A stretch of DNA of 64,000 nucleotides from Escherichia phage UPEC06: sequence record MW250786, one strand, 5' to 3'. Positions 17,519 to 64,000 of this stretch are shown in pieces (within the stretch, counting starts at the first letter, position 1; every line of letters begins with the position of its first letter). The position numbers and the translations under genes are program-made. The notes under the pieces are model-generated. The model worked only from the letters and a program-made list of their open reading frames with translations. It ran no database searches and was not told the DNA's origin.

Positions 17519-17974
17519 TTACCCCTGTTTAAGCTTAAAAGATTTAAAGGCTTCGATAAAGTCCATTTCTTTTTGCGTGTATTTGTGGTCAATTGTATCA
17601 GCGAAAAGAGGGCAACGACCATCAACCAACTTCACATCCCACAGATGTTGAGGGAGAATAAATGCAATGGCTGTAAGTGCACCATTCAAAGAATCATTCT
17701 CCTCGCAGAAAAATGCGTAAGGAATCTTCTCTATGTTTGGAGCTAAAAATCCTTCTGCAAAATTAAGCATCTTAGATTGATAGCCTCCGTTCAACAAGAT
17801 CATTGTTTGGTCTTTGCTTTGCCACTGATCTACAAGGTTGTATCTGTCATCATATCGATCGGCATAGGCAAAGCCATAATGACCTACAAGGTTTGCTGCT
17901 GCATGTGCTGCTTGGATACCTGCTTGGATTCCCATCATGTAGCTGTTTACCAATACGTACATCCGAGTTTTCAA
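17519..17974 (-). CDS. PTH2-like peptidyl-tRNA hydrolase fold protein (tentative)
   Basis: MGIQAGIQAAHAA resembles the PTH2 GK.AAQ..HA motif; NGALTAIAF resembles the second conserved segment. Confidence 0.4.
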   Translation of the reverse strand: MKTRMYVLVNSYMMGIQAGIQAAHAAANLVGHYGFAYADRYDDRYNLVDQWQSKDQTMILLNGGYQSKMLNFAEGFLAPNIEKIPYAFFCEENDSLNGALTAIAFILPQHLWDVKLVDGRCPLFADTIDHKYTQKEMDFIEAFKSFKLKQG

Positions 17975-18291
17975 TTCTTACCTCCGAAAATTCTTTTTGC
18001 AAATTTTTCATTACCTAACGTCATGTTGTAGAAAACTATAATTGAATAGACAATCCACGCAAGGACATAAAATAAAATCAAGAAAGGCCATCCCACAAAC
18101 CAAAACACTGTCATTATTAACCAGCCCGTCATAAGGAGTTTATAATTAACATTCCCGTGATTTAAAGGGTCAAGTAAGTTACTGTTCTCTGGCAGGGTGA
18201 TACGAAACCCACCTTGACGAAGCTTGATCAAAAAGAACCAAGCAGCAGAACTTATAATGCAACATAAAATATATATCAGTAATCCTGTCAT
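17971..18291 (-). CDS. membrane protein (tandem paralog 1; LIKLRQGGF motif)
   Basis: 106 aa, 3 hydrophobic helices; homologous to the adjacent gene. Confidence 0.55.
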   Translation of the reverse strand: MTGLLIYILCCIISSAAWFFLIKLRQGGFRITLPENSNLLDPLNHGNVNYKLLMTGWLIMTVFWFVGWPFLILFYVLAWIVYSIIVFYNMTLGNEKFAKRIFGGKN

Positions 18292-18617
18292 TTTTTAACT
18301 CCGAAGATCTTAGATAGTAATTTATCATTCCCGATAGTTACACCACAAAAACTTTTTACTCCGTATACTAGATACGACCCGATTGTAACACAGATAATGA
18401 TCGGATAAACAAGATACCAAAAGAATGTTGCAAGTATCCACCCTGCCATCACCATACGTAAATTTACATTTTCGTTATTCAGTGGTTCCAGGATATAAAT
18501 ATCCTCACAATCTTTTGGGAAGGGGATATTGAACCCCTTCTGCCGTAATTTAATCAATAAGAACCAAAGTGGACAACTGATCAAACAACCTATTAAATAA
18601 CCTTCAACCATTTTCAC
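18288..18617 (-). CDS. membrane protein (tandem paralog 2; LIKLRQKGF motif)
   Basis: 109 aa; homologous to the adjacent gene. Confidence 0.55.
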   Translation of the reverse strand: MKMVEGYLIGCLISCPLWFLLIKLRQKGFNIPFPKDCEDIYILEPLNNENVNLRMVMAGWILATFFWYLVYPIIICVTIGSYLVYGVKSFCGVTIGNDKLLSKIFGVKK

Positions 18618-19945
18618 TCTCCTTCAACTTGTCAAGGTATTGTGTAACGTATCTTACTTTTACATTTCTGATTCTGCTCTTGATCTCATCTGGACGTCCC
18701 GCAAATTTTTCAGAAATCTCTTTACTTTCTTTTGAGATTGCAACACTGTTCTGAATAATACCCGCCAGTGCTGAGAATAATACCAGTGGTTGACTGTAGT
18801 TGTCAAACATTTTTTCAGGTCCACGCCCACGAGCATCACAGATGCAAGCGTCCCGCCAGTGCTGAGAATAATACCAGTGGTTGACTGTAGTTGTCAAACA
18901 TTTTTTCAGGTCCACGCCCACGAGCATCACAGATGCAAGCGTCAATAAATTCAGAAAGGAATGCTTGGTCCTTTTCACCACGTAAGGCTACCAACAAGTC
19001 ATAAACTTTCTTCGGCTTCATCTCTTTAATACGGTGAAGTCGTGTATGGTGCTCGGTCACAGCTAAAGCTAACTTCTTCCAACTGTTGGGAACACCAAAC
19101 CGATCGCAAACTTGCTCAGTCAACTTGATACCATGTTCTTCATGCCCGTGTAACTTACCTGTAACCCAATAAATGCATTTCCCTAAGTCGTGACACAATA
19201 CTGCCCACTTTACAGCCTCACTTGCACGAATGGCTTGAGCATAATCCATACAAAGTAAAGTATGAACAAATGCGTCACCTTCTGGATGGTGTTCTTTAGG
19301 TTGAACAACATCATGCAAGTCAACAAGCTCAGGGAATTCACCAAGTTGAGTCAACATACGGATCATTACCGAAGGTTTATTCATCTCCGACTGATCACTG
19401 AAGCATTTCTTAATCTCTGCAAATTTACGCTCTTTTGGAAGTGCACTTAAATCTGCATTTTGGCACATTAACCAAGTTATAGAGTCAATTATAAACTCTC
19501 CACCATATCTGGCGTAAAGTCTTGCTAGTCGGTATACACGTAAGGGGTCTTCGATAAATGCCTTAATAGATACACAACGTAACCGACGATTTTCAATATC
19601 AAGTGCACCACCGCAAGGGTCAATAATTTCACCCGTAGAAAGATCCTTAGCAATAGCATTAATGGTCAAATCTCTTCGCATCAGATCTTGCTCGATTGTA
19701 ACGTCTGGAGAGAACACAACCTCAAAGTCGTGATAACCAGGTCCTGTTGACCTTTCTGTCCTAGCAAGAGCATACTCTTCCTTTGTCTCGGGGTGAAGGT
19801 ATACAGGAAAAGCTGCACCAACTTGAGTGAATCCCTTTTCAATCATTTCTTCATGGGTCGCCCCAACTACAACGTAGTCACGATCCTTGCTTTCAACACC
19901 CATTAGTTCATCCCTCACTTGCCCACCAACAGCATATATTTTCAT
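18604..19945 (-). pseudogene. cca: tRNA nucleotidyltransferase (CCA-adding enzyme, class II, HD domain), reading frame broken by the 91-bp duplication
   Basis: N-terminal GGQVRDELMG..DRD motif; the two ORF-track ORFs (18836-19975 and 18604-18981) share the peptide ACICDARGRGPEKMFDNYSQPLVLFSALAG; removing one repeat copy restores one ~426-aa ORF. Confidence 0.6.
18761..18942. repeat. Exact tandem direct duplication of a 91-bp unit (18761-18851 and 18852-18942) inside the CCA-adding enzyme gene
   Basis: Read directly: identical 91-nt strings back to back; 91 is not a multiple of 3. Confidence 0.9.
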
Positions 19946-20280
19946 ACTCTTTCCCCTCTTAAGTTTAAAGACCAATCTTTTATTTCTTCTTTCCAGTTTG
20001 TATTTCTCTTAATGTCTTGCTTTTGACCACGAAGATAGTTGATGATTTCAAGCGGGTCTTGCTTAACAAAAGAAATATTATCGATCGGACACTCAACTAA
20101 CTTAAGCATCCTTTCAAAACGATTATACTCATCTTCTGACTTCGGTGCAACAGGAATAATATCATAATCTTCAAGATTGTCGAGAGTTTCAAGAGTTTCA
20201 AGAGTAACCTTCATCTCATAGCCTTCTAATCTCTTTGTCTTGATACCAAACACTCTTCGAAAGTAAATGTAATATTTCAT
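19942..20280 (-). CDS. hypothetical protein
   Basis: ATG at 20280 with an AGGAGAA RBS; ATGA overlap with the cca start. Confidence 0.5.
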   Translation of the reverse strand: MKYYIYFRRVFGIKTKRLEGYEMKVTLETLETLDNLEDYDIIPVAPKSEDEYNRFERMLKLVECPIDNISFVKQDPLEIINYLRGQKQDIKRNTNWKEEIKDWSLNLRGERV

Positions 20281-20332
20281 TATGTTCTCCTAGTTGATGA
20301 CTATCATTATACACATCCCCATATCCAAGTCA

Positions 20333-20362
20333 ACAAAAAAGGCCACCCGAAGGTGACCTTTA
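20333..20362 (-). terminator. Intrinsic terminator (aggtcacc-ttcg-ggtggcct plus U-run); same sequence as the plus-strand terminator at 61192-61221 in reverse orientation
   Basis: Hairpin plus A-run on the plus strand; reverse complement of 61193-61221. Confidence 0.65.
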
Positions 20363-20365
20363 AAT

Positions 20366-42164: not shown

Positions 42165-42625
42165 CAGTAAAGGTCCTCAGAGTAAAGTTCTTTTTCATTA
42201 CCACCACGTTCAATACGTACTTGTCCAGCGTAAGTTGCAATAATCATTGCTTCTTCACGTGTCCAATAATTGCTATATTGGTCAATAAACCCTTGGTCAT
42301 CATCACAAACTTGTTGAGTAACTAATTGAGGTTTAACTACATCTAAAACTTCTGCCATATCTTTAGAATAATGACGAGCACCTGGAATAATAAGAGTTCG
42401 TCCATCTTTTAATTTAAAACGGTTGGCTGCGCAGACAATTCGTCGTTGATACTTTTGGTTTTCATCCCAATACAGAGTCTGCCAACAGATTTCAGGAACT
42501 TCATCTAAAACATTTTGTTCTGTATATTCACCACCGTAAGAAGCTAATTTAGCAGCCAGACTTTCCGGAGTCTCACGCGACAAAGCTTTATCTAACAGAG
42601 CTAAACGTTCTTTAAAAGTTTTCAA
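42164..42625 (-). CDS. hypothetical protein
   Basis: 153-aa ORF; TTG start with an AAAGGGG RBS. Confidence 0.5.
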
Positions 42626-42629
42626 TTGA

Positions 42630-42818
42630 TCACCCCTTTGTAGTAGAATCTTGCTTGGTCATTTCACGAAGAATAAGTGCTCCAATATTTTCAAGAAGTG
42701 TTACAAGAGAGTCAACCTCAGGTAACTTAATACTCTTGGCTTCTTTACTCATCCCATCACGAACTCCCGAAATTTGCATAAACACGGCAATCATTTCTTT
42801 TGTAAGTTTAATATTCAT
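42630..42818 (-). CDS. hypothetical protein
   Basis: 62-aa ORF. Confidence 0.4.
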
Positions 42819-42885
42819 TTTATCTCCTGTTGTTGGTTGATATGGGTATTATACAGAACTGGAGGCAGGTGTCAAGAGATATATA

Positions 42886-42912
42886 AAGAAAACCGCCCCG
42901 AAGGGCGGTTTA
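42886..42912 (-). terminator. Intrinsic terminator (aaccgccc-cgaa-gggcggtt); third copy of this hairpin
   Basis: Identical hairpin; A/T-rich flanks on both sides. Confidence 0.65.
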
Positions 42913-42919
42913 AAAATTT

Positions 42920-43162
42920 TTACCAATTTGCGTAACCATCTTGTTCATCGGTATCACGATCTATGATTCGTGGCTTTGGAGTTAGATCCATATGAGCAAG
43001 AGGCGTACCTTCTGGAATATCATTCAGTGAATATTCAACATTTACCAGTTGACCTGTAAGCTCATCCATCTTTTGGGAGATATACGCTGCAACTGATCGA
43101 CCCTCCAGAGTAGCCAGGTATTTCAGTTTTTCGTAAGTTGCGTCGTTAAAATTAATATTCAT
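42920..43162 (-). CDS. hypothetical protein
   Basis: 80-aa ORF. Confidence 0.45.
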   Translation of the reverse strand: MNINFNDATYEKLKYLATLEGRSVAAYISQKMDELTGQLVNVEYSLNDIPEGTPLAHMDLTPKPRIIDRDTDEQDGYANW

Positions 43163-43224
43163 ATTTGTATCTCCTTTTTGTATTTTTCATTACAAGGACC
43201 ACACTAACGTGGCCCGATCGTTAC

Positions 43225-43446
43225 TTAAGCTACCAGTTCTAAATCTTCAGCTTCTGCGTAGAAACCATCGACGATAACACCGTCCTGACGTGTGAATGCA
43301 ACAATAACATCTCCCCAATCTTCATCGACGAATTCAACAACGCCAATATCTCCAAATCGAACACCAGACAAACTGTAGCGGTCTTCATAATTACCTAACG
43401 GACTGAACTTAACTGTCTGACCTGGATTAACTTCTTTGATATTCAC
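43225..43446 (-). CDS. hypothetical protein
   Basis: 73-aa ORF. Confidence 0.45.
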   Translation of the reverse strand: MNIKEVNPGQTVKFSPLGNYEDRYSLSGVRFGDIGVVEFVDEDWGDVIVAFTRQDGVIVDGFYAEAEDLELVA

Positions 43447-43486
43447 AGAATTTCTCCTTATACAACTTTAAGATATTAACTTTATA

Positions 43487-43798
43487 TTATTCTTCATCAA
43501 CTTCACGACCCATCAAGATATCAAGTTCGTTCAGTTGTTCAATCTGGCTTTCAAGCGCTGCACGTTTCTTCTCTGCTGCATCTTGCTTATCGTATTCACC
43601 GTTGATCAGGGTACGTAGGAATTTAGGGTCGATGTTCAGGTCTTCTTTAGTGATCGCCAGGATGCTTTTCAGATCTTCAGCAGCATCTTTCTGACGACGA
43701 ACAGCTTCAACACCTTCCTGAACAATGTTAGCCAGACGCTTACGAACTTCCAGGTCAGAAGGCAGGGTATTGATCAGTTCGATTTTAGATTTAGCCAT
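43487..43798 (-). CDS. hypothetical protein
   Basis: 103-aa ORF. Confidence 0.5.
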   Translation of the reverse strand: MAKSKIELINTLPSDLEVRKRLANIVQEGVEAVRRQKDAAEDLKSILAITKEDLNIDPKFLRTLINGEYDKQDAAEKKRAALESQIEQLNELDILMGREVDEE

Positions 43799-43883
43799 TT
43801 GTATTTCTCCTCTTTAGTGTTTAAATAGTAAGTTAACTTCTTTGCTTCGATGGGGTAAATAATACCCCATTCAATATCTTCTG

Positions 43884-44231
43884 TCAAGCAGGATTTTTAA
43901 GTTCTTTAAAAACAACCTGGAAGACTGGAATTTCATCACTGATCTCTGACACAAGTAGAGCTACAGTTTCACAAGGTAAAGTACATGTTGCAAACGTCTC
44001 ATAGCCTGTATGGATCTTCAAGGTTAAATTACCTTTCAGTCCAATTTGGAACTGACGTACAAAAGAACTTAATGCACTAACATAAATCTCATGATATCCA
44101 TTTGGACGACGAACATATTTTTTACCACTTGCAAGACCCTGGATAACAAGACCATCAAAAGAGATTTTAGTCTGAGCACCATCATACAGTGGCAACGCAG
44201 TTTTTTCAACATCTTTTTCTTGATTCATCAT
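43884..44231 (-). CDS. hypothetical protein
   Basis: ATG at 44231 with an AAGGAGAA RBS. Confidence 0.5.
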   Translation of the reverse strand: MMNQEKDVEKTALPLYDGAQTKISFDGLVIQGLASGKKYVRRPNGYHEIYVSALSSFVRQFQIGLKGNLTLKIHTGYETFATCTLPCETVALLVSEISDEIPVFQVVFKELKNPA

Positions 44232-44237
44232 TTCTCC

Positions 44238-44414
44238 TTATCGTACAAACATTTTACCCTGGTCACAATAACCGTTTTTAATTCCTCGTGGAGCAGACAA
44301 ACATTTTACTGCAATCTCTCCACACTTGCAAGGAGCATTTTCACGTTCTGCAATCTTTCGGTTCTGATCGAAAACTTCACCACATTTTTCACATTTGTAA
44401 GAATACAACGGCAT
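44238..44414 (-). CDS. FmdB-like zinc-ribbon protein (58 aa), below the ORF-track length cutoff
   Basis: MPLYSYKCEKCG...CKCGE; ATG at 44414 with a GGAGGG RBS. Confidence 0.5.
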   Translation of the reverse strand: MPLYSYKCEKCGEVFDQNRKIAERENAPCKCGEIAVKCLSAPRGIKNGYCDQGKMFVR

Positions 44415-44417
44415 TAA

Positions 44418-45194
44418 TTACATACCCTCCAGGTTTGCTTCAAAATAAGTGATTGGCTTCATGATCTTGCCATTCTTATCTTTAAATACTACACGATCCA
44501 TACCATCACCACCTTTTACGATGCTTCCCTTTACACCTTGATAACGGTTACGGTTACGCAGTTCAATCTGTTCAGCTTCCAAACGCAACATGGCATCAAG
44601 ATCAAAATCAGCTTCTGCAAAAAAGTAATACGTCTTGTAGAAACATTCCGTAAATTCTTTCACGGTTGGGATCTTGGAATCATTTGAATCCAAAACCTCA
44701 TTTAAAGCACGACGAGCATTAAAGTTGGAGTTCTGCATGATTGCAACAACCGCCATAACGATCCCGTTTGTATTGTCACTCTCGATAAATTGATCAAGAG
44801 TTCGATAAAGCGAAGTCAGATTATACGTACCCATATTGTCAGCAGGACAGATGTTTTCAGAACCACCTTTTAGGAAGTTGTAATATGATCCAACTACAAA
44901 CAAGTCGCAAAGTGCATCTATGATTTCCTTACGATTCTTTTTAGTTAAACCAAGATCATAAAGTTCATTGTACTCTTCCATAACAAGAGTTTTTTGGAAT
45001 TTTGAAATATCTTCAGAGAAGTCATGAAAACCACGAGCAACAAAATTCCAATTTTTTACTCGCTCTGCTGCTTCCCGAAAGAAGCTATTGCCCTTAACAT
45101 CAATCATCTCGGAAATAAAGGTTTTCTGATCAGCACTCAATTCATTGTATTTCAATTTAATCTCCTTTCGTTTAACTTGGGGGCCATTATACAT
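44418..45194 (-). CDS. hypothetical protein
   Basis: 258-aa ORF. Confidence 0.55.
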   Translation of the reverse strand: MYNGPQVKRKEIKLKYNELSADQKTFISEMIDVKGNSFFREAAERVKNWNFVARGFHDFSEDISKFQKTLVMEEYNELYDLGLTKKNRKEIIDALCDLFVVGSYYNFLKGGSENICPADNMGTYNLTSLYRTLDQFIESDNTNGIVMAVVAIMQNSNFNARRALNEVLDSNDSKIPTVKEFTECFYKTYYFFAEADFDLDAMLRLEAEQIELRNRNRYQGVKGSIVKGGDGMDRVVFKDKNGKIMKPITYFEANLEGM

Positions 45195-45209
45195 GACCCC
45201 TTATCATTG

Positions 45210-45671
45210 TCAACAGTCTTTATAAGTTTCTAGTGCAACTTTACGGGCTTCATCCTTTTCAATCTCAAACTTAGATCGTTTGTCCTTTCTTGAAGCCTTG
45301 TTACGTCGCTTAACGATTCGACGACAGGTGTGGTAAAGTCGTGTACCTTCATAATCATTCATCCAGAACAGATCGCCATTCACGAAGAGAGTATCGGAGA
45401 TAATACCACAAGCCTTTTCAATGTAAGTAACCTTACCTGTGACCGTATCGACAATTGTATAGTCAACATACCAAAGACTATCGTTATCCTCGCACGGGTC
45501 TTGTTGGCCTTCAGGAACAAAAACTCCAGAATGTATCTCAAATCGAGGAGATCCTTTACGGATCAGCTTCAAGATTTTACCTGCTGGCTTACGAGTTAGC
45601 AGTACCGGAACACCTAAGACTACTGAAAGGTAAAGTGTAATCCCTACAAACCCAATAATTAAAGCTTCCAC
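45210..45671 (-). CDS. hypothetical protein with an N-terminal TM anchor
   Basis: IIGFVGITLYLSVVLGVPVLL near the N-terminus. Confidence 0.5.
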   Translation of the reverse strand: MEALIIGFVGITLYLSVVLGVPVLLTRKPAGKILKLIRKGSPRFEIHSGVFVPEGQQDPCEDNDSLWYVDYTIVDTVTGKVTYIEKACGIISDTLFVNGDLFWMNDYEGTRLYHTCRRIVKRRNKASRKDKRSKFEIEKDEARKVALETYKDC

Positions 45672-45673
45672 TA

Positions 45674-47041
45674 TTAAACCTCCTCTGCAATTTTACGAAG
45701 AAGATCCAGAAGAGAATTCGATGCCTCGATCACTTCTTCTAGACTGTTGGCTACACTCTTATCAAAACGAAGCTCAACAAACTTATAATTTAAACGTGGC
45801 AGAAATAGGGATTTCAGATCTTTATTTTCTGCGTCAGTAATGTCATTAGCTTTGATCGTAATAATCTGACCAATAAAATACTCACTTGGTTTTTTACGAA
45901 GTGCATCAGTAAGTCCAGAGCCAGCACCAACCTCAAGAAGTCCATCACGAGTACGGCAGATCAGAGATCCAATAAGCCCAGGTTTCTTTTTGTGAGGCGT
46001 TGTCGCCACAACTTCAAGATCAACATCGAACTCATTTTTAAGTTTGATCCCTTTCTTAGTTTTGTTATCTCCCCAAGGCATATTCGCTTCTTTAAGAACC
46101 GTACCCTCTTTCTTCTGCAAACGCATTTCGATAAAGTGGTCAATAGCCTCTTTAAGACTGCCAATCTGACGACCACGGATCATCTGGAAATGAGAAGACT
46201 CATCAACATAGTTGACAATATTTTCAACCTGCTTACGACGATCTTTATATTTTTTCTTGGATTTACGTGCGATATACTCGTCCATAGAAACAACATCCCA
46301 AACAACCAAACGTACCAGATTAGGATCAATGTTTTCAGGATCTTGGTTAAGATATCCGTTACCGATCTCTCGTGGTTGAACCCCGTGCGGGTATGACAGG
46401 TCAATAACTAAACCTTCCCCGTGCATAACAAAAGGACCATCAGAATTGGCTTTTTCTTTCAGGTTTTGCTCAAGTGAAGGAATACACCGGAAATTAAGCT
46501 CTTTCCCTGATCGTGAACGATAAATGATCTGCTCAGGCCAAACCATAATGTCTGCATAAAGTCCGTCCATCTTCTCGTCGGAGAAAGCACCCTCGTAGTT
46601 GAAATTACGAAGGAGATCCTCTTTGAAAAGGGTGTAGCTTTGGTAAGGAGGCTCTGTAATCAGATCCTTCCAAACCTTGTTGGTCAGGGTTGTCTGGATA
46701 CCACACTCAAGATCGCGGTTAATGATCTTCAGCAGTGTTTCTGGTTCTTCGCACAGTTGAACAGCATTCGTGAGAACATCACGGGCTTCATGCCCAGTAT
46801 ACATACGACTTGCAACATCGTTGACGATAAGATCAATACTCTCTTGCAGATTACGGCTTCCTTGGTGGAAAGTTGCAGGATCAACCTTAAAACTGCGAAC
46901 AAAAAAGTTTAACTCTTTGCTATATGCTACCCGAAATACTTCACGCAGGCCATCATTGTCCGCATGGCTACGTAAGATCGCTTCTTTTTCTTTTGTTGAT
47001 CCGGTTGCTGCAAGTTGTTCGATAATCTTAGTTACGCTCAT
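45674..47041 (-). CDS. ATP-dependent DNA ligase
   Basis: Motif I KMDG, motif III FVMHGEGLV, motif IV EGTVLK, motif V KGIKLK in the canonical order. Confidence 0.7.
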   Translation of the reverse strand: MSVTKIIEQLAATGSTKEKEAILRSHADNDGLREVFRVAYSKELNFFVRSFKVDPATFHQGSRNLQESIDLIVNDVASRMYTGHEARDVLTNAVQLCEEPETLLKIINRDLECGIQTTLTNKVWKDLITEPPYQSYTLFKEDLLRNFNYEGAFSDEKMDGLYADIMVWPEQIIYRSRSGKELNFRCIPSLEQNLKEKANSDGPFVMHGEGLVIDLSYPHGVQPREIGNGYLNQDPENIDPNLVRLVVWDVVSMDEYIARKSKKKYKDRRKQVENIVNYVDESSHFQMIRGRQIGSLKEAIDHFIEMRLQKKEGTVLKEANMPWGDNKTKKGIKLKNEFDVDLEVVATTPHKKKPGLIGSLICRTRDGLLEVGAGSGLTDALRKKPSEYFIGQIITIKANDITDAENKDLKSLFLPRLNYKFVELRFDKSVANSLEEVIEASNSLLDLLRKIAEEV

Positions 47042-47050
47042 AGTTTCTCC

Positions 47051-47386
47051 TTAGTTTGCTTTGATTTCTAATGTGTATTTTGCCAGACCAAAACCAATCT
47101 TGTCAAGATCTTCTAGGGATTTTTTAACCTCTTCAAAGACCTCTTTAGTTACATTATTTCCACTAACAATATACCGTATCTCAGGACTCCCATCCCCCAC
47201 AACTTCGAAATCATAGTCCTTAAAAAATACGATCACTCCGGCTGCACCATTCTCGTCACTACCGGATAGCATGATTCCCTCTTCATTAGCAACTTGAAAA
47301 ATTCGATCTTTGAAATCATATACCTTACCAACAACAAACTTAAGAGAGTTAAATTTAGTCTTGTAGCCTTTGAATCGGTATTTCAT
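47051..47386 (-). CDS. hypothetical protein
   Basis: 111-aa ORF. Confidence 0.5.
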   Translation of the reverse strand: MKYRFKGYKTKFNSLKFVVGKVYDFKDRIFQVANEEGIMLSGSDENGAAGVIVFFKDYDFEVVGDGSPEIRYIVSGNNVTKEVFEEVKKSLEDLDKIGFGLAKYTLEIKAN

Positions 47387-47604
47387 TTAGTCTCCTTTAG
47401 TTTTCCACAAAGAGCACCTTCAACATAGTCAGGGTTCTCTTTAAAGAACTGATCATTCTTTTTTATGATGACACCAATATTTCGACGGAGAAATGCGAAA
47501 GCTTTGATCCCACGATACCAAGCGTCAAAGCTGGACTTCTTCAGTTCTCCACCTGTATAGACATTGGTGAAATAAAACGGATGAGTCTTCTTACTTATCC
47601 TCAT
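47383..47604 (-). CDS. hypothetical protein
   Basis: 73-aa ORF. Confidence 0.45.
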   Translation of the reverse strand: MRISKKTHPFYFTNVYTGGELKKSSFDAWYRGIKAFAFLRRNIGVIIKKNDQFFKENPDYVEGALCGKLKETK

Positions 47605-47613
47605 TGTTCCCCC

Positions 47614-47967
47614 CTAAACAGAGAAAAGAACCTCTTCTTTCTCCACATGAAATTCAAAATCGTCCACAAGATTAGATTCCCAGTCCTTACTTTCATGGTA
47701 ACTACACGTCCAACGGTAAACACCAGGACCAGAATCTGAATCTGGGGGAAGACCAATATACTCCGCTTCAGGACCCTCGTCAAGCAATGCAGGGTGAATA
47801 TTTGGTGCTTTAAGGACGGTTACCCGTCCACTGTAATCGACAGCCACGATCCAAACACTACCGTTAGGAGATTCGAAAACTTCCTCTTCTGGATCTTCTT
47901 TGATAAGAGTTTTGTTTGGCTTTTTCAAGCAGGTTGCTAATCCAGAATCAATCCACTGGTTTGACAT
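47614..47967 (-). CDS. hypothetical protein
   Basis: Internal ATG at 47967 avoids overlap with the upstream gene. Confidence 0.45.
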   Translation of the reverse strand: MSNQWIDSGLATCLKKPNKTLIKEDPEEEVFESPNGSVWIVAVDYSGRVTVLKAPNIHPALLDEGPEAEYIGLPPDSDSGPGVYRWTCSYHESKDWESNLVDDFEFHVEKEEVLFSV

Positions 47968-47986
47968 TCCGTTACTAAGCCATTTT

Positions 47987-48358
47987 TCAGACAGACTTTT
48001 TCTTTTTTGTGACACGTTTCTTCTCCTTTTCCACTTTTGGTGGTGCTTTCTTTTTAGGTTTGGTCCAAGCCTTTTTAGGCTCATCTGGCTTCTCATACAG
48101 CCCAAGCACGACTCTTTCTATCGCACTCATAGGAACGATTGTCATCTTCCGTCTCTTAGCGTCAGGAAGCTGTAACTCCCAAATACCCAACCAATAAGAG
48201 AGATCATCAATGCGATCCTGTACCCAAGGGTCCGGCTTCGGAATAGTTAGTAGTCTACTCAACTCTTCATTGCATGTCAACAAACATTCTTCAAGTTTTT
48301 CAACTGGCGTATTAAAAACAAAGGCCGTCTTGTCAAAAGGCTTCTTCTCTGTCGTCAT
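47987..48358 (-). CDS. hypothetical protein with a lysine-rich C-terminal tail
   Basis: C-terminal KKKAPPKVEKEKKRVTKKKK. Confidence 0.5.
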   Translation of the reverse strand: MTTEKKPFDKTAFVFNTPVEKLEECLLTCNEELSRLLTIPKPDPWVQDRIDDLSYWLGIWELQLPDAKRRKMTIVPMSAIERVVLGLYEKPDEPKKAWTKPKKKAPPKVEKEKKRVTKKKKSV

Positions 48359-49924: not shown

Positions 49925-50066
49925 TATAAAAGATCCTTTAAGATCTGTAGATCTATAGATCATATATATAAAAAGATCTTATAAAAGATCTTGTTTTTAT
50001 TGTTTTTAATAATAATTATGAATGAAATGAATAATTATTATATAATTTATGAATGAAATGAATAAA
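49925..50066. repeat. Iteron-like region: six GATC sites in 59 bp (49932-49990), three copies of tataaaagatc, and two copies of tatgaatgaaatgaataa about 30 bp apart
   Basis: Read directly from the sequence; AT-rich divergent intergenic region. Confidence 0.7.
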
Positions 50067-50147
50067 TTATAATGATAAAGGGTTTGGCGAGAGGCTTCGA
50101 GCCAGGGAAATCTAATATAGTATTGTATGCCTAAACGGGCATAAAGG

Positions 50148-52317: not shown

Positions 52318-52392
52318 GGCCCTGTAGCTGGACGGTTCAAGCAAGCGACTCATAATCGCCAGACGGTGGTTCGATTCCACCCAGGGCCACCA
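52318..52392 (+). tRNA. tRNA-Met (anticodon CAT; could be initiator, elongator or Ile-lysidine type)
   Basis: Acceptor ggccctg/cagggcc, anticodon loop ctCATaa, T-arm ggtgg-ttcgatt-ccacc, discriminator A, encoded CCA. Confidence 0.7.
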
Positions 52393-52525
52393 TATGAAGT
52401 CGGGTCGCTCCCGATAAGTCGTCGGACTGATGTTCCCTGACTACGAGTTCCCTCAACGATAACGACGTAGATCACAGCAGAAACGGCGCACCCTATTTCA
52501 TTTCTTAATACATTTCAATAAGTTC

Positions 52526-52554
52526 TTGACATAATCCTATTATACTGCTAATAT
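52526..52554 (+). promoter_or_regulatory. Sigma70-type promoter: -35 TTGACA, 17-bp spacer, -10 TAATAT
   Basis: TTGACA at 52526-52531 and TAATAT at 52549-52554. Confidence 0.6.
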
Positions 52555-52581
52555 AGTTATATCTACTGAATTGAGGTGTTT

Positions 52582-52956
52582 ATGGCTAAAGCTGAAATCG
52601 TTACTCGAAAACGCGGTCGGCCTACTACAGAGGAAAGCATTGCAATCAATACTGAGAGAGCAATTCTTCATGCTCGTTCCGAGTTTGCAAGACTTACTCC
52701 TCAAGCAATTAAAACTCTGGAAGGTCTACTGACTTCCGGTACAGAGAAAGTTAAAGAAACTACTGCGAAGTATATTCTTGAGCAAGCTGAAAAGGCAAAC
52801 AATCTGTACACGATGGAAGATAATGAAGAGGATCTGGCAGGAGGAACTACTTCTGCAAATTCAGAAACTCATCAAGGCCCTTCTGACGCATTTAAGGATG
52901 CTATTCCATTAACTACTCAGATTCGTGAGTATAAAATGGCAGAAGGTGAAGATTAA
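52582..52956 (+). CDS. small basic-N-terminus, acidic-C-terminus protein; possible DNA-binding protein or terminase small subunit
   Basis: ATG at 52582 with a GAGG RBS; KRGRPT motif; function not established. Confidence 0.5.
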   Translation: MAKAEIVTRKRGRPTTEESIAINTERAILHARSEFARLTPQAIKTLEGLLTSGTEKVKETTAKYILEQAEKANNLYTMEDNEEDLAGGTTSANSETHQGPSDAFKDAIPLTTQIREYKMAEGED

Positions 52957-52976
52957 GGCTCGCAAGGGCCTTTATT
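52955..52976 (+). terminator. Possible terminator hairpin (GCAA tetraloop) after the 52582-52956 gene
   Basis: Stem aaggctc/gggcctt with gcaa loop followed by tttatt. Confidence 0.35.
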
Positions 52977-53210
52977 AAGAAGTTTTCTTTAAGGTAGTTC
53001 TTACTTTAGCAGAGTAAATCTTCGGCAAGTGGCGGTAACCACTTTACCGATACCTCATAGTTAGTGTTGCGAACACTGGCTACCTTAAAGAGAATTTAAC
53101 TCGTCGAATAAGGAAGATGCTGATCTCAAAGTGAGGTTACTTACCGCAAGGGGTGTGCATAGACTCCCGCTTCCGAATAGACTATGTGGCGAGATGTATT
53201 TGGGGACGTA

Positions 53211-53561
53211 ATGAATAATAAAGACCAAGGTAATGCAGGAGAGGCGTTTGCCATCTATCATTACACCTCATCAGGCCACAAGGTGTCAAAGCCGTTGTTT
53301 GAAAACTGCCCATACGACCTTATCGTTGATAAAGACGGTTGTTTGTTAAGGGTACAAGTTAAAACATCGCGTGTCAAAGCGCCAAGTGGAAGGTATGAGG
53401 TTTCTTTGAGGACCAACGGTGGTAACCGAAGTGGTATAGGAAAGAGCAAAAATATCTCAAGCTCGGAAGTAGACCTACTTTTCGTTCTTATTGAAGACGG
53501 GAGGTATTTTGAAATCCCTTGCTCAGAGGTAGATGGTCAGACTTGCGTGACCGTAGGATAA
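53211..53561 (+). CDS. restriction-endonuclease-like (PD-(D/E)XK-type) nuclease, possible homing endonuclease inside the tRNA island
   Basis: GEAF..YDLIVDKDG..RVQVKTS resembles E...PD...(E/Q)VK; ATG at 53211 with a GGGGA RBS. Confidence 0.35.
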   Translation: MNNKDQGNAGEAFAIYHYTSSGHKVSKPLFENCPYDLIVDKDGCLLRVQVKTSRVKAPSGRYEVSLRTNGGNRSGIGKSKNISSSEVDLLFVLIEDGRYFEIPCSEVDGQTCVTVG

Positions 53562-53562
53562 G

Positions 53563-53649
53563 GCATTGTTAGACCGTAGGGGTAGCGGGGCAGACTGTAA
53601 ATCTGCTGTTCATAGAACTCGGGTGGTTCGACTCCATCACAATGCACCA
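53563..53649 (+). tRNA. tRNA-Tyr (anticodon GTA), type II with a long variable arm
   Basis: Acceptor gcattgt/acaatgc, anticodon arm gcaga-ctGTAaa-tctgc, 15-nt variable arm, T-arm ggtgg-ttcgact-ccatc, discriminator A, CCA. Confidence 0.65.
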
Positions 53650-53652
53650 AAT

Positions 53653-53727
53653 TTTCCGTTAGGCTTATAGGATAAGATTCCCGCAACGTCTCGTTGTGAT
53701 ACTGGTTCGAATCCAGTACGGAAACCA
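53653..53727 (+). tRNA. tRNA-like element: perfect acceptor stem and T-arm, no canonical anticodon arm
   Basis: tttccgt/acggaaa acceptor and actgg-ttcgaat-ccagt T-arm; the middle does not fold into a standard D/anticodon arm by eye. Confidence 0.3.
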
Positions 53728-53733
53728 AATTAA

Positions 53734-53815
53734 TGTGCGGGTAACATAATTGTCACGGTGGCAAGCTGGCCTCCAAAACCAGTCGTAAGGAGTTCGACTC
53801 TTCACCTTCACGCCA
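53734..53815 (+). tRNA. tRNA-like element, possibly tRNA-Trp (CCA anticodon loop ctCCAaa) with an over-long D region
   Basis: Acceptor gtgcggg/ccttcac (1 mismatch), anticodon-like loop ctccaaa, T-loop ttcgact, discriminator G, CCA; 82 nt. Confidence 0.35.
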
Positions 53816-53819
53816 AATA

Positions 53820-53896
53820 CGGTGTATAGCGCAACTTGGTAGCGCGAATGCTTTGGGAGCATTAGGTTCGAGGTTCAAATCCTCGTACACCGACCA
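53820..53896 (+). tRNA. tRNA-Pro (anticodon TGG)
   Basis: Cloverleaf folded by eye: C1-G72, D-arm gcgc/gcgc, anticodon arm aatgc-ttTGGga-gcatt, T-arm cgagg-ttcaaat-cctcg, discriminator A, CCA. Confidence 0.75.
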
Positions 53897-53901
53897 AATA
53901 T

Positions 53902-53977
53902 GCGGGTATAGCTCAGTTGGTAGAGCTTCTGATTTCCAATCAGAATGTCACGAGTTCGAGTCTCGTTATCCGCTCCA
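53902..53977 (+). tRNA. tRNA-Gly (anticodon TCC)
   Basis: gcgggta acceptor, D-arm gctc-agttggta-gagc, anticodon arm tctga-ttTCCaa-tcaga, T-arm acgag-ttcgagt-ctcgt, discriminator U, CCA. Confidence 0.8.
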
Positions 53978-53985
53978 AACAAAAA

Positions 53986-54060
53986 TGGGGATTAGCCAAG
54001 CGGTAAGGCATTGGATTTTGATTCCAACATTCACTGGTTCGAGTCCAGTATCCCCAGCCA
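53986..54060 (+). tRNA. tRNA-Gln (anticodon TTG)
   Basis: U1-A72 acceptor tggggat/atcccca, anticodon arm ttgga-ttTTGat-tccaa, T-arm actgg-ttcgagt-ccagt, discriminator G, CCA. Confidence 0.75.
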
Positions 54061-61946: not shown

Positions 61947-64000
61947 ATGGCTGAATATAATGATAAGGTCGTGGAAGCATTCGTTACTGCTCCTGATCCT
62001 GTCGTAACTACCACTGGTGGTGGAGTTATTTTTAACGGTATTGAAACGGAAGATACTGTATCTACCCTGTTAGTTGGTAATGGTACTGCCTCTTCCCCTC
62101 TGCAAGCTCAAGTTAAGCTATCTCGCCGTGCAGGTAACGCCCTGACTCTGGTTCAGACTGATAACGAGGAAGGCTTGTTTGCTTCCGCTGGAGATGCTAA
62201 AGTATCTACCTCTCAGGCGAACGTTGCAAAATACGTCACTGCGGAAGAAGCTGCTGCTCAAGGTGATGCCAGTTTGGAAGGTGTTCTGGTTGAGCCAGTT
62301 CATGCTACCACTACCGCTGTTGGTGACGCACTGGAAATTACCGCAGATCCTCTGGTTGCTAAAAACTCCCGTATATCCCTGAAAGTTTCCACCTCTTCAA
62401 CTAACGCTTTGTCTGTAGACCCTGATGGTTTGGCAGTTAAAGTTTCCCCCGCTATCGACAACAGCTTGCAAGTTCGTGAAGGTGCACTGTATGTAGCTCC
62501 AGTTGGTGCTGACATTTCTCAAGATGCAGGTAACAAACTGGAACAACGTTCAGATGGTCTGTTTGTAGAAACCATCAAAGGTGACAAAGGCGATCAGGGT
62601 GAACAAGGACCAGCAGGTCCACAAGGCCCAGCCGGAGAAACTGGACCTGCTGGCCCGCAGGGTGAAAAAGGGGATAAAGGGGATACTGGAGAAGTCGGTC
62701 CTGCTGGCGCAACTGGACCTATCGGTCTGACTGGCGCAACTGGCCCTCGTGGTGTAGAAGGTCCTCGTGGCCCTGCTGGTATTGGTATCAACATCCTCGA
62801 CACCTTGGCATCTGAAGATCAATTGCCTTCTGTTGTTGATCTTGCGAATGGTGATACATACGTAATCGGACAGAGTTTCTTTACCGTTATCACTGAAGGT
62901 GGTATCAAACAATGGAGAAACGTAGGTAACTTCGCTGGACCTGAAGGTCTTTCTGCATTTGAAGTTGCTGAAACCGCAGGCTTTGTTGGAACAGTCGATG
63001 ACTGGTTGGCTACCCTTCGTGGTGCTGACGGTATAGGTCTGCAACTCCTTGGTTCTTTCCAGCGTATCGAAGATCTTCCTCAAGAAGAGAACAAACCTGG
63101 TGATGCCTACATCATTCAAGAAAAGATGTATGTTTGGACTGGTGATACAGATGGCTGGCAACCTGTAGGACAGATCGGTCCTGAAGGTCGTTCTGCTTAT
63201 CAGGTCTGGCTGGCTAACGGGAACGTAGGTTCTCAGCGTGAATTCCTTGAATCACTGAAAGGTGAGAAAGGTGATACTGGCGATCAGGGTCCTCAGGGTA
63301 TCCCAGGTGCAGATGGTAAAAATGCTAACGCCATTAATATCTTAGGTTCCGTTGCAGATCAGGCGAGTTTGCCAGAAGGTGCAGATGCAGGTGATGCTTA
63401 CCTGATCGGTACTAACGTATTCGTTTCTGATGGTGCTGGCAACTGGCAAGACTTGGGATCTTTCCAAGGTCCGCAAGGTCCTACTGGTGCTAAAGGCGAC
63501 AAGGGTGACAAAGGGGACAAAGGGGACAAAGGCGATAAAGGTGATGACAACTATGCCATCGCAGTTGCTAACGGTTTCCAAGGATCAGTAAATGAATACC
63601 TTGCATCTATCAAGGGTGAGAAAGGTGACGTTGGTGCAACTGGCCCTCGTGGATTGGCTGGTCCACAAGGTGAACAAGGTCCTGTTGGTGCGGGTCTGAA
63701 TATCCTTGGCTCAGTAGCTTCCGAAGATCAATTACCTCAGACTGGTATTAGTGAAGGTGACGCTTATCTGATTGAAGCTGATCTTTATATCTTCACTGGC
63801 GGTCAGTGGACTAACGTTGGTAACATCAAAGGTCCTCAGGGTGATATTGGTCCTGTAGGTCCACAAGGTCCTATCGGCTTGACTGGTGCACAGGGACCGC
63901 AGGGTGCAACAGGAGCACAAGGCCCTGCTGGCCCACAAGGTGAGACGGGTCCACAAGGTGGTATCGGTCCACAGGGAGAAACTGGAGAGAAAGGCGATAA
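61947..64000 (+). CDS. collagen-like repeat fiber protein (partial; continues past the window end)
   Basis: ATG at 61947 with an AGGAG RBS; open frame to position 64000; G-X-Y tracts (GDKGDQGEQGPAGPQGPAGETGPAGPQGEKGDKGD; GDKGDKGDKGDKGDKGD) alternate with four copies of a ~45-aa NILGSVA..EDQLP..GDAYLI module. Confidence 0.75.
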   Translation, partial: MAEYNDKVVEAFVTAPDPVVTTTGGGVIFNGIETEDTVSTLLVGNGTASSPLQAQVKLSRRAGNALTLVQTDNEEGLFASAGDAKVSTSQANVAKYVTAEEAAAQGDASLEGVLVEPVHATTTAVGDALEITADPLVAKNSRISLKVSTSSTNALSVDPDGLAVKVSPAIDNSLQVREGALYVAPVGADISQDAGNKLEQRSDGLFVETIKGDKGDQGEQGPAGPQGPAGETGPAGPQGEKGDKGDTGEVGPAGATGPIGLTGATGPRGVEGPRGPAGIGINILDTLASEDQLPSVVDLANGDTYVIGQSFFTVITEGGIKQWRNVGNFAGPEGLSAFEVAETAGFVGTVDDWLATLRGADGIGLQLLGSFQRIEDLPQEENKPGDAYIIQEKMYVWTGDTDGWQPVGQIGPEGRSAYQVWLANGNVGSQREFLESLKGEKGDTGDQGPQGIPGADGKNANAINILGSVADQASLPEGADAGDAYLIGTNVFVSDGAGNWQDLGSFQGPQGPTGAKGDKGDKGDKGDKGDKGDDNYAIAVANGFQGSVNEYLASIKGEKGDVGATGPRGLAGPQGEQGPVGAGLNILGSVASEDQLPQTGISEGDAYLIEADLYIFTGGQWTNVGNIKGPQGDIGPVGPQGPIGLTGAQGPQGATGAQGPAGPQGETGPQGGIGPQGETGEKGD

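Follow-up and report, generated by a model that had tools for sequence, protein, structure and literature searches.

The DNA analysed here, referred to below as the window, is a 64-kb stretch of the genome of Escherichia phage UPEC06 (MW250786). The cca gene of this phage is on the minus strand. As deposited, it contains two copies of a 91-base unit, at positions 18761-18851 and 18852-18942. Direct string comparison shows that the copies are identical and arranged head to tail. Tandem Repeats Finder reports the same element at 18761-18943, with period 91, 2.0 copies, 100% matches, no indels and a score of 366. The unit starts with CCCGCCAGTGCTGAG and ends with GATGCAAGCGT. At the boundary between positions 18851 and 18852, GCAAGCGT meets CCCGCCAG and the junction string is GCAAGCGTCCCGCCAG. 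String comparison extended outwards from the copies gives 0 bases of further identity to the left and 1 base (C) to the right. The microhomology at the endpoints of the duplication is therefore a single base, which is uninformative in either direction. Both strands of the window were searched, and the 91-base unit is the sole exact repeat of at least 31 bases. Hence, chance is excluded as the source of the repeat.

The duplication leaves two overlapping reading frames on the minus strand. The upstream ORF (18836..19975) encodes 379 amino acids from a TTG codon, or 369 from the ATG at 19945. A Shine-Dalgarno-like sequence, AAGAGGGGAAAGAGT, is found immediately upstream of this ATG. The 369-residue form (18836..19945) ends ...SALAG-RLHL and is identical to GenBank entry QUL77189.1, which is annotated as 'multifunctional CCA addition/repair protein' of Escherichia phage UPEC06. 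This truncated protein is known from GenBank only; the contig index has no called-gene entry for it. The downstream ORF (18604..18981), a mechanical call of 125 amino acids, overlaps the 369-residue frame. Its residues 1 to ~43 are out-of-frame junk and the remainder is the true C-terminus of Cca (DACICD...KESENG). The exact 125-residue sequence was not found in the protein collection.

Deletion of one copy yields a single ORF, of 416 amino acids from the ATG or 426 from the upstream TTG. Counted from the ATG, the true gene occupies 18604..19945 and is 1251 nt long once one 91-base copy is removed. The deposited sequence is in frame with Cca up to residue 365, and the last ~51 residues are lost. 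The 369-residue product is an artefact of the frameshift. A sequence-only reading of the window had described the mismatch-free tandem, its splitting of the gene into two overlapping ORFs that both contain ACICDARGRGPEKMFDNYSQPLVLFSALAG, and the motif GGQVRDE at the N-terminus of the product. The repeat searches and the ORF translations agree with it on each point. It had also proposed that removal of one copy restores a single ORF of ~426 residues. The single ORF is indeed obtained; the length is that of the TTG form, and the 416-residue product of the ATG is the more probable one, because GenBank annotates that start and relative A5-4 has the same start.

We considered whether the deposited arrangement could be functional. 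A split gene, with the 125-residue ORF expressed separately as a C-terminal fragment, was rejected; the first ~43 residues are cca sequence read out of frame, the protein collection does not contain the protein, and the relatives all have one ORF. Programmed frameshifting was also rejected. What links the frames is a literal duplication of sequence and not a slippery site, and the relatives encode the protein in one frame.

Directly downstream of cca are two adjacent, overlapping genes on the minus strand (17971-18291 and 18288-18617). Their products, of 106 and 109 amino acids, are small, hydrophobic and paralogous, with 41% identity over 103 residues (E 2e-30) and a common motif, W-F-[FL]-L-I-K-L-R-Q-x-G-F. 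The exact 109-residue sequence was not found in the protein collection; relatives have a 107-residue gene at the same position.

The restored CCA-adding enzyme and its relatives

The restored protein has a Pfam PolyA_pol head domain (PF01743, residues 3-123, E 3.4e-19) and a C-terminal HD domain (PF01966, residues 227-316, E 2.9e-8). Both are retained in the truncated 369-residue form. Against NCBIfam NF008137, residues 1-407 of the 416-residue Cca align to profile positions 1-404 of 409 (E 2.8e-113, 378.8 bits). Since this alignment reaches residue 407 of 416, the residues that the frameshift removes are part of the conserved family sequence. Although the protein aligns over its full length, its score falls short of 451, the curated cut-off for equivalogs. 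Hence, the UPEC06 protein is best described as a diverged phage homologue of NF008137. Sequence matches to solved structures cover the N-terminal ~180-245 residues only, and are to class II CCA-adding enzymes and poly(A) polymerases. The motifs GGxVRD, DxD, RRD and EDP..R, which we take to be those of class II enzymes, can be read in the sequence.

The E. coli Cca type (NF008137 / PRK10885) is a class II tRNA nucleotidyltransferase with a C-terminal HD domain. The UPEC06 protein resembles it in the end-to-end alignment and in having both domains. It differs in scoring under the equivalog cut-off, and its activity is a prediction. The real phage almost certainly has a single intact cca gene, whose 416-residue product is predicted from its sequence to be a class II CCA-adding and repair enzyme.

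Five tRNA genes (Met-CAT, Tyr-GTA, Pro-TGG, Gly-TCC and Gln-TTG) form a cluster on the plus strand at 52318-54060. All five encode the 3' CCA in the genome. Thus, Cca would not be needed for maturation of the phage tRNAs and its role would be one of repair. An AT-rich, imperfect 31-base tandem (2.3 copies, 85% matches) is found ~2 kb upstream of the cluster, at 50007-50078.

The closest GenBank genomes are those of the Vequintavirinae A73, W70, A7_1, A5-4 and vB_EcoM-LTH01, which are 95-96% identical to UPEC06 over 24 kb. Each of the five has a single annotated CCA tRNA nucleotidyltransferase gene of 416-431 amino acids in the same gene order. An intact cca is ordinary for the clade, and nothing unusual for large myoviruses. 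The sequence-only reading had suggested a look at related phages for the number of copies. The 91-base unit occurs once in each of the five relatives, and in A73 and W70 it is 100% identical to the UPEC06 unit.

The region upstream of cca varies among these phages. In A73, W70, A7_1 and LTH01 an additional 165-bp ORF (L001 3094-3258) separates cca from the upstream 109/112-residue gene, and the annotated N-terminus of Cca is 14-15 residues longer. UPEC06 (window 19946-20300) and A5-4 lack the 165-bp ORF. Identity near 19946-20300 is ~90-92%, compared with 95-96% in the surrounding 24 kb.

The 91-base unit in sister genomes and independent assemblies

UPEC06 is one of four phages from Kampala sewage, the others being UPEC01, UPEC03 and UPEC07. 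UPEC06 was plaque-purified three times. Sequencing used MiSeq 2x151-nt reads (73,143 read pairs for UPEC06, equivalent to ~150x coverage), assembly used SPAdes 3.11.1 with default settings stated, and termini were determined with PhageTerm. The UPEC06 genome (MW250786) is 143,140 bp; its reads are SRX12306092 and those of UPEC03 are SRX12305929 (PMC8928767). The records for UPEC01, UPEC03 and UPEC07 are labelled 'partial genome' in GenBank.

An exact 91-base redundancy is present in three of the four project genomes. In UPEC03 (MW250785, a Pseudotevenvirus), of which the first 50 kb was searched, two exact copies stand in tandem at 44798-44888 and 44889-44979. They divide a long-tail-fibre gene into two annotated fragments. 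When one copy is deleted, a single ORF of 743 amino acids results, whose stop is precisely the one annotated for the downstream fragment and whose product has Gp34_trimer and Peptidase_S74 domains. The UPEC03 record starts next to the terminase genes. In UPEC07 (MW250787, a Gaprivervirus) the redundancy is terminal rather than internal; the first 91 bases (1-91) are the same as the last 91 (169914-170004). The UPEC07 record ends inside a gene for a 58-residue zinc-ribbon protein, which is annotated as two partial CDS and is restored only by trimming the overlap. The same gene is intact in the middle of the genome in many other phages; hence, the joined UPEC07 gene is real. The ends of the UPEC01 record join seamlessly, with no overlap, so the artefact is not in every project record. 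One such 91-base repeat was found per stretch examined, these being the 64-kb UPEC06 window and the first 50 kb of UPEC03.

From these observations, the end repeat of UPEC07 is an untrimmed circular-contig overlap and not a biological terminal repeat. The UPEC03 tandem is the same artefact as that in UPEC06.

Independent assemblies of public reads were then compared with the deposited sequences. The exact 416-residue Cca is encoded in three Logan assemblies, including that of run SRR16019202. Contigs SRR16019202_1 and SRR16019202_2 match window positions 8604-30875 at 100.000% identity, with 0 mismatches and 0 gaps, except that one 91-base unit is carried, on SRR16019202_2, instead of two. The contig numbers of this run (_1 and _2) are very low and so point to a small data set from an isolate rather than to a metagenome. 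In the collection, the restored UPEC03 fibre protein has one location only, Logan run SRR16019039. Contig SRR16019039_40 of that run matches UPEC03 42341-48263 at 100% identity, again with one unit. The step from SRX12305929 to SRX12306092 is 163, and so is that from SRR16019039 to SRR16019202. Very probably, SRR16019202 and SRR16019039 are the authors' own read sets for UPEC06 and UPEC03, respectively. This link is drawn from the 100% nucleotide identity and the equal offsets of the SRX and SRR numbers, and not from SRA metadata. Five further Logan runs contain related phages (95-99.6% identity), each with one copy.

A single copy in a Logan contig could in principle be a collapsed repeat. 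A control from UPEC03 counters this explanation. Contig SRR16019039_40 stops on both sides at a genuine 31-base repeat, found at 42340-42370 and 48234-48264 of UPEC03. Thus, assembly with k=31 does break at real repeats. A 91-base duplication present at full depth would branch the graph and end the contigs. Instead, the contigs run unbroken through one copy, with no support for the duplication. Given that the k=31 contig is unbroken and that the control contig does stop at its repeat, we infer that junction-spanning reads are absent. The junction 30-mer is missing from all related loci fetched, including the assembly of the matching run SRR16019202. It also has no match in IMG/VR, a result that is uninformative alone and consistent with an artefact.

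The Logan assemblies of both SRR16019202 and SRR16019039 are split into several contigs. SRR16019202_1 and SRR16019202_2 abut exactly at 20335-20364, with a 30-base overlap whose sequence is not repeated in the window. This stretch, AAAAAAGGCCACCCGAAGGTGACCTTTAAA, is hairpin-like and terminator-like, and lies between the methyltransferase gene and a 112-residue gene. In one related phage, on Logan contig SRR28047936_4058 (L011, 3554-5619), the gene for the small subunit of class Ia ribonucleotide reductase is split into parts of 227 and 143 amino acids. The split is caused by an inserted ORF for a 235-residue HNH_3 homing endonuclease, which looks like an intron or mobile insertion and is absent from UPEC06.

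Origin of the duplication

Sister assemblies repeat the 91-base length, in UPEC07 in terminal form, and independent assemblies have a single copy. Together, these results argue that the UPEC06 duplication is an assembly or finishing artefact, probably made by an untrimmed circular-contig overlap, and that cca is really intact. The one-copy loci of the five GenBank relatives and the five further Logan runs, and the family conservation of the residues that the frameshift removes, also favour this reading. We put the probability of an artefact at about 0.96; the exact route by which it arose is somewhat less certain. One of the two copies would be spurious and the junction between them artificial.

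A direct terminal repeat is routinely used to recognise circular contigs. Such a repeat could arise here if the reads closed into a cycle in the assembly graph, as would suit a genome that is circularly permuted, terminally redundant or concatemeric. The assembler would write the cycle out in linear form, with the same 91 bases at the start and at the end of the contig, the state seen directly in UPEC07. For UPEC06, the contig may then have been re-opened at another position without trimming of the overlap, with the PhageTerm terminus step probably setting the new start. The old contig ends would become adjacent and create an internal, head-to-tail duplication of 91 bases. By happenstance, the old junction would fall inside cca, and gene calling would yield the frameshifted 369-residue ORF. 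The UPEC06 repeat resembles untrimmed overlaps from de Bruijn graphs in several respects. The copies are identical, the length is odd and k-mer-like, one length is found across the affected assemblies, the repeat is terminal in UPEC07, and it is lost on independent assembly of the reads. It differs from a typical terminal overlap in that the UPEC06 and UPEC03 repeats are internal and tandem, and so resemble a biological duplication. For 151-nt reads, the default k values of SPAdes are 21, 33, 55 and 77; 91 is not known to be among them. The exact value of 91 does not fit these defaults, despite the default settings stated in PMC8928767.

The same sequence signature would be expected had two linear contigs overlapping by 91 bases been concatenated without merging, with no rotation of a circular contig. 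The fragmentation of the Logan assemblies of these runs and the 'partial genome' label of three sister records would suit such an event. However, the UPEC07 repeat is an overlap between the start and end of one record, closing a circle within a gene, which is the signature of a circular contig, and each stretch examined has a single repeat of this kind. Concatenation is accordingly an unlikely route. With either this route or a circular overlap, the duplication is non-biological.

The sequence-only reading had offered an artefact, a real inactivating duplication and a population variant without ranking them. Only the artefact is supported; the other two are hard to reconcile with the recurrence of 91 bases in the sister genomes and the one-copy independent assembly. 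The repeat does look like a genuine spontaneous tandem duplication of a phage genome, being head to tail, perfect, out of frame and within coding sequence. It differs from one in that independent assembly gives it no support, its length matches artefacts in unrelated genomes, and it is absent from relatives and other samples. A real and recent duplication that had become fixed in the stock of UPEC06 would truncate Cca after residue 365; slippage during replication or illegitimate recombination would have made it. Such a loss could be tolerated, given that the host supplies Cca and the phage tRNAs encode CCA. The duplication is present in the deposited sequence, three plaque purifications could fix a rare variant, and the encoded CCA of all five tRNA genes and the survival of both Pfam domains make loss of the C-terminus plausible. 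Against this, two unrelated genomes out of the one pipeline have exact repeats of just this length, 91 bases, and in one of them the repeat is terminal. Independent assembly of the matching run gave a single copy, with 0 mismatches elsewhere, from a k=31 graph that breaks at real repeats. In addition, the equivalent event in UPEC03 would break the gene for a long tail fibre, which a plaque-forming phage is expected to need intact, and the endpoint microhomology in UPEC06 is limited to 1 base. We consider fixation of a real duplication extremely improbable.

A variant carried by a subpopulation of the sequenced lysate, and threaded into the consensus by the original assembler, has a prospect slimmer still. 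A low-coverage path through the junction could be pruned during Logan clean-up, so that a one-copy contig could coexist with a minority variant. However, an assembler would not normally favour a minority path, the junction appears in no other run or relative, and the identity of length with the UPEC07 terminal overlap and the UPEC03 tandem would be left unexplained. Overall, we give very little weight to a real duplication, whether fixed or in a sizeable subpopulation, whose 91-base length matches the pipeline by coincidence. Were it real, a frameshifting duplication of very recent date would have cost Cca its last ~51 residues and left both catalytic domains in place. The phage could then dispense with full-length Cca in laboratory culture.

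Correction of the records

As an artefact, the duplication has no bearing on phage biology and its value is curatorial. Three GenBank records need correcting, each for 91 spurious bases. In MW250786 (UPEC06), these bases bring with them the truncated protein record QUL77189.1 and an extra ORF. In MW250785 (UPEC03), they introduce a spurious break in the 743-residue tail-fibre gene. In MW250787 (UPEC07), they form a terminal redundancy that has no biological basis. The phages are candidates for the therapy of avian colibacillosis; hence, the annotation of their tail fibres and gene content should be correct. A filter for genome scans also follows. Where an exact tandem of k-mer-like length is found inside an assembled phage gene, sister assemblies and independent assemblies of the reads should be checked first.

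Repeats of another kind are found towards the end of the window. On the plus strand in frame 2, an ORF from ~63480 to 64000 encodes collagen-like Gly-X-Y repeats (KGDKGDKGD..., GPQGEQGPVG..., GPQGATGAQGPAGPQGETGPQG...) and continues past the end of the window. The product is probably a tail-fibre or decoration protein. The tandem repeats with 9- and 18-base units (63492-63544 and 63933-63973) are due to its collagen-like repeats.
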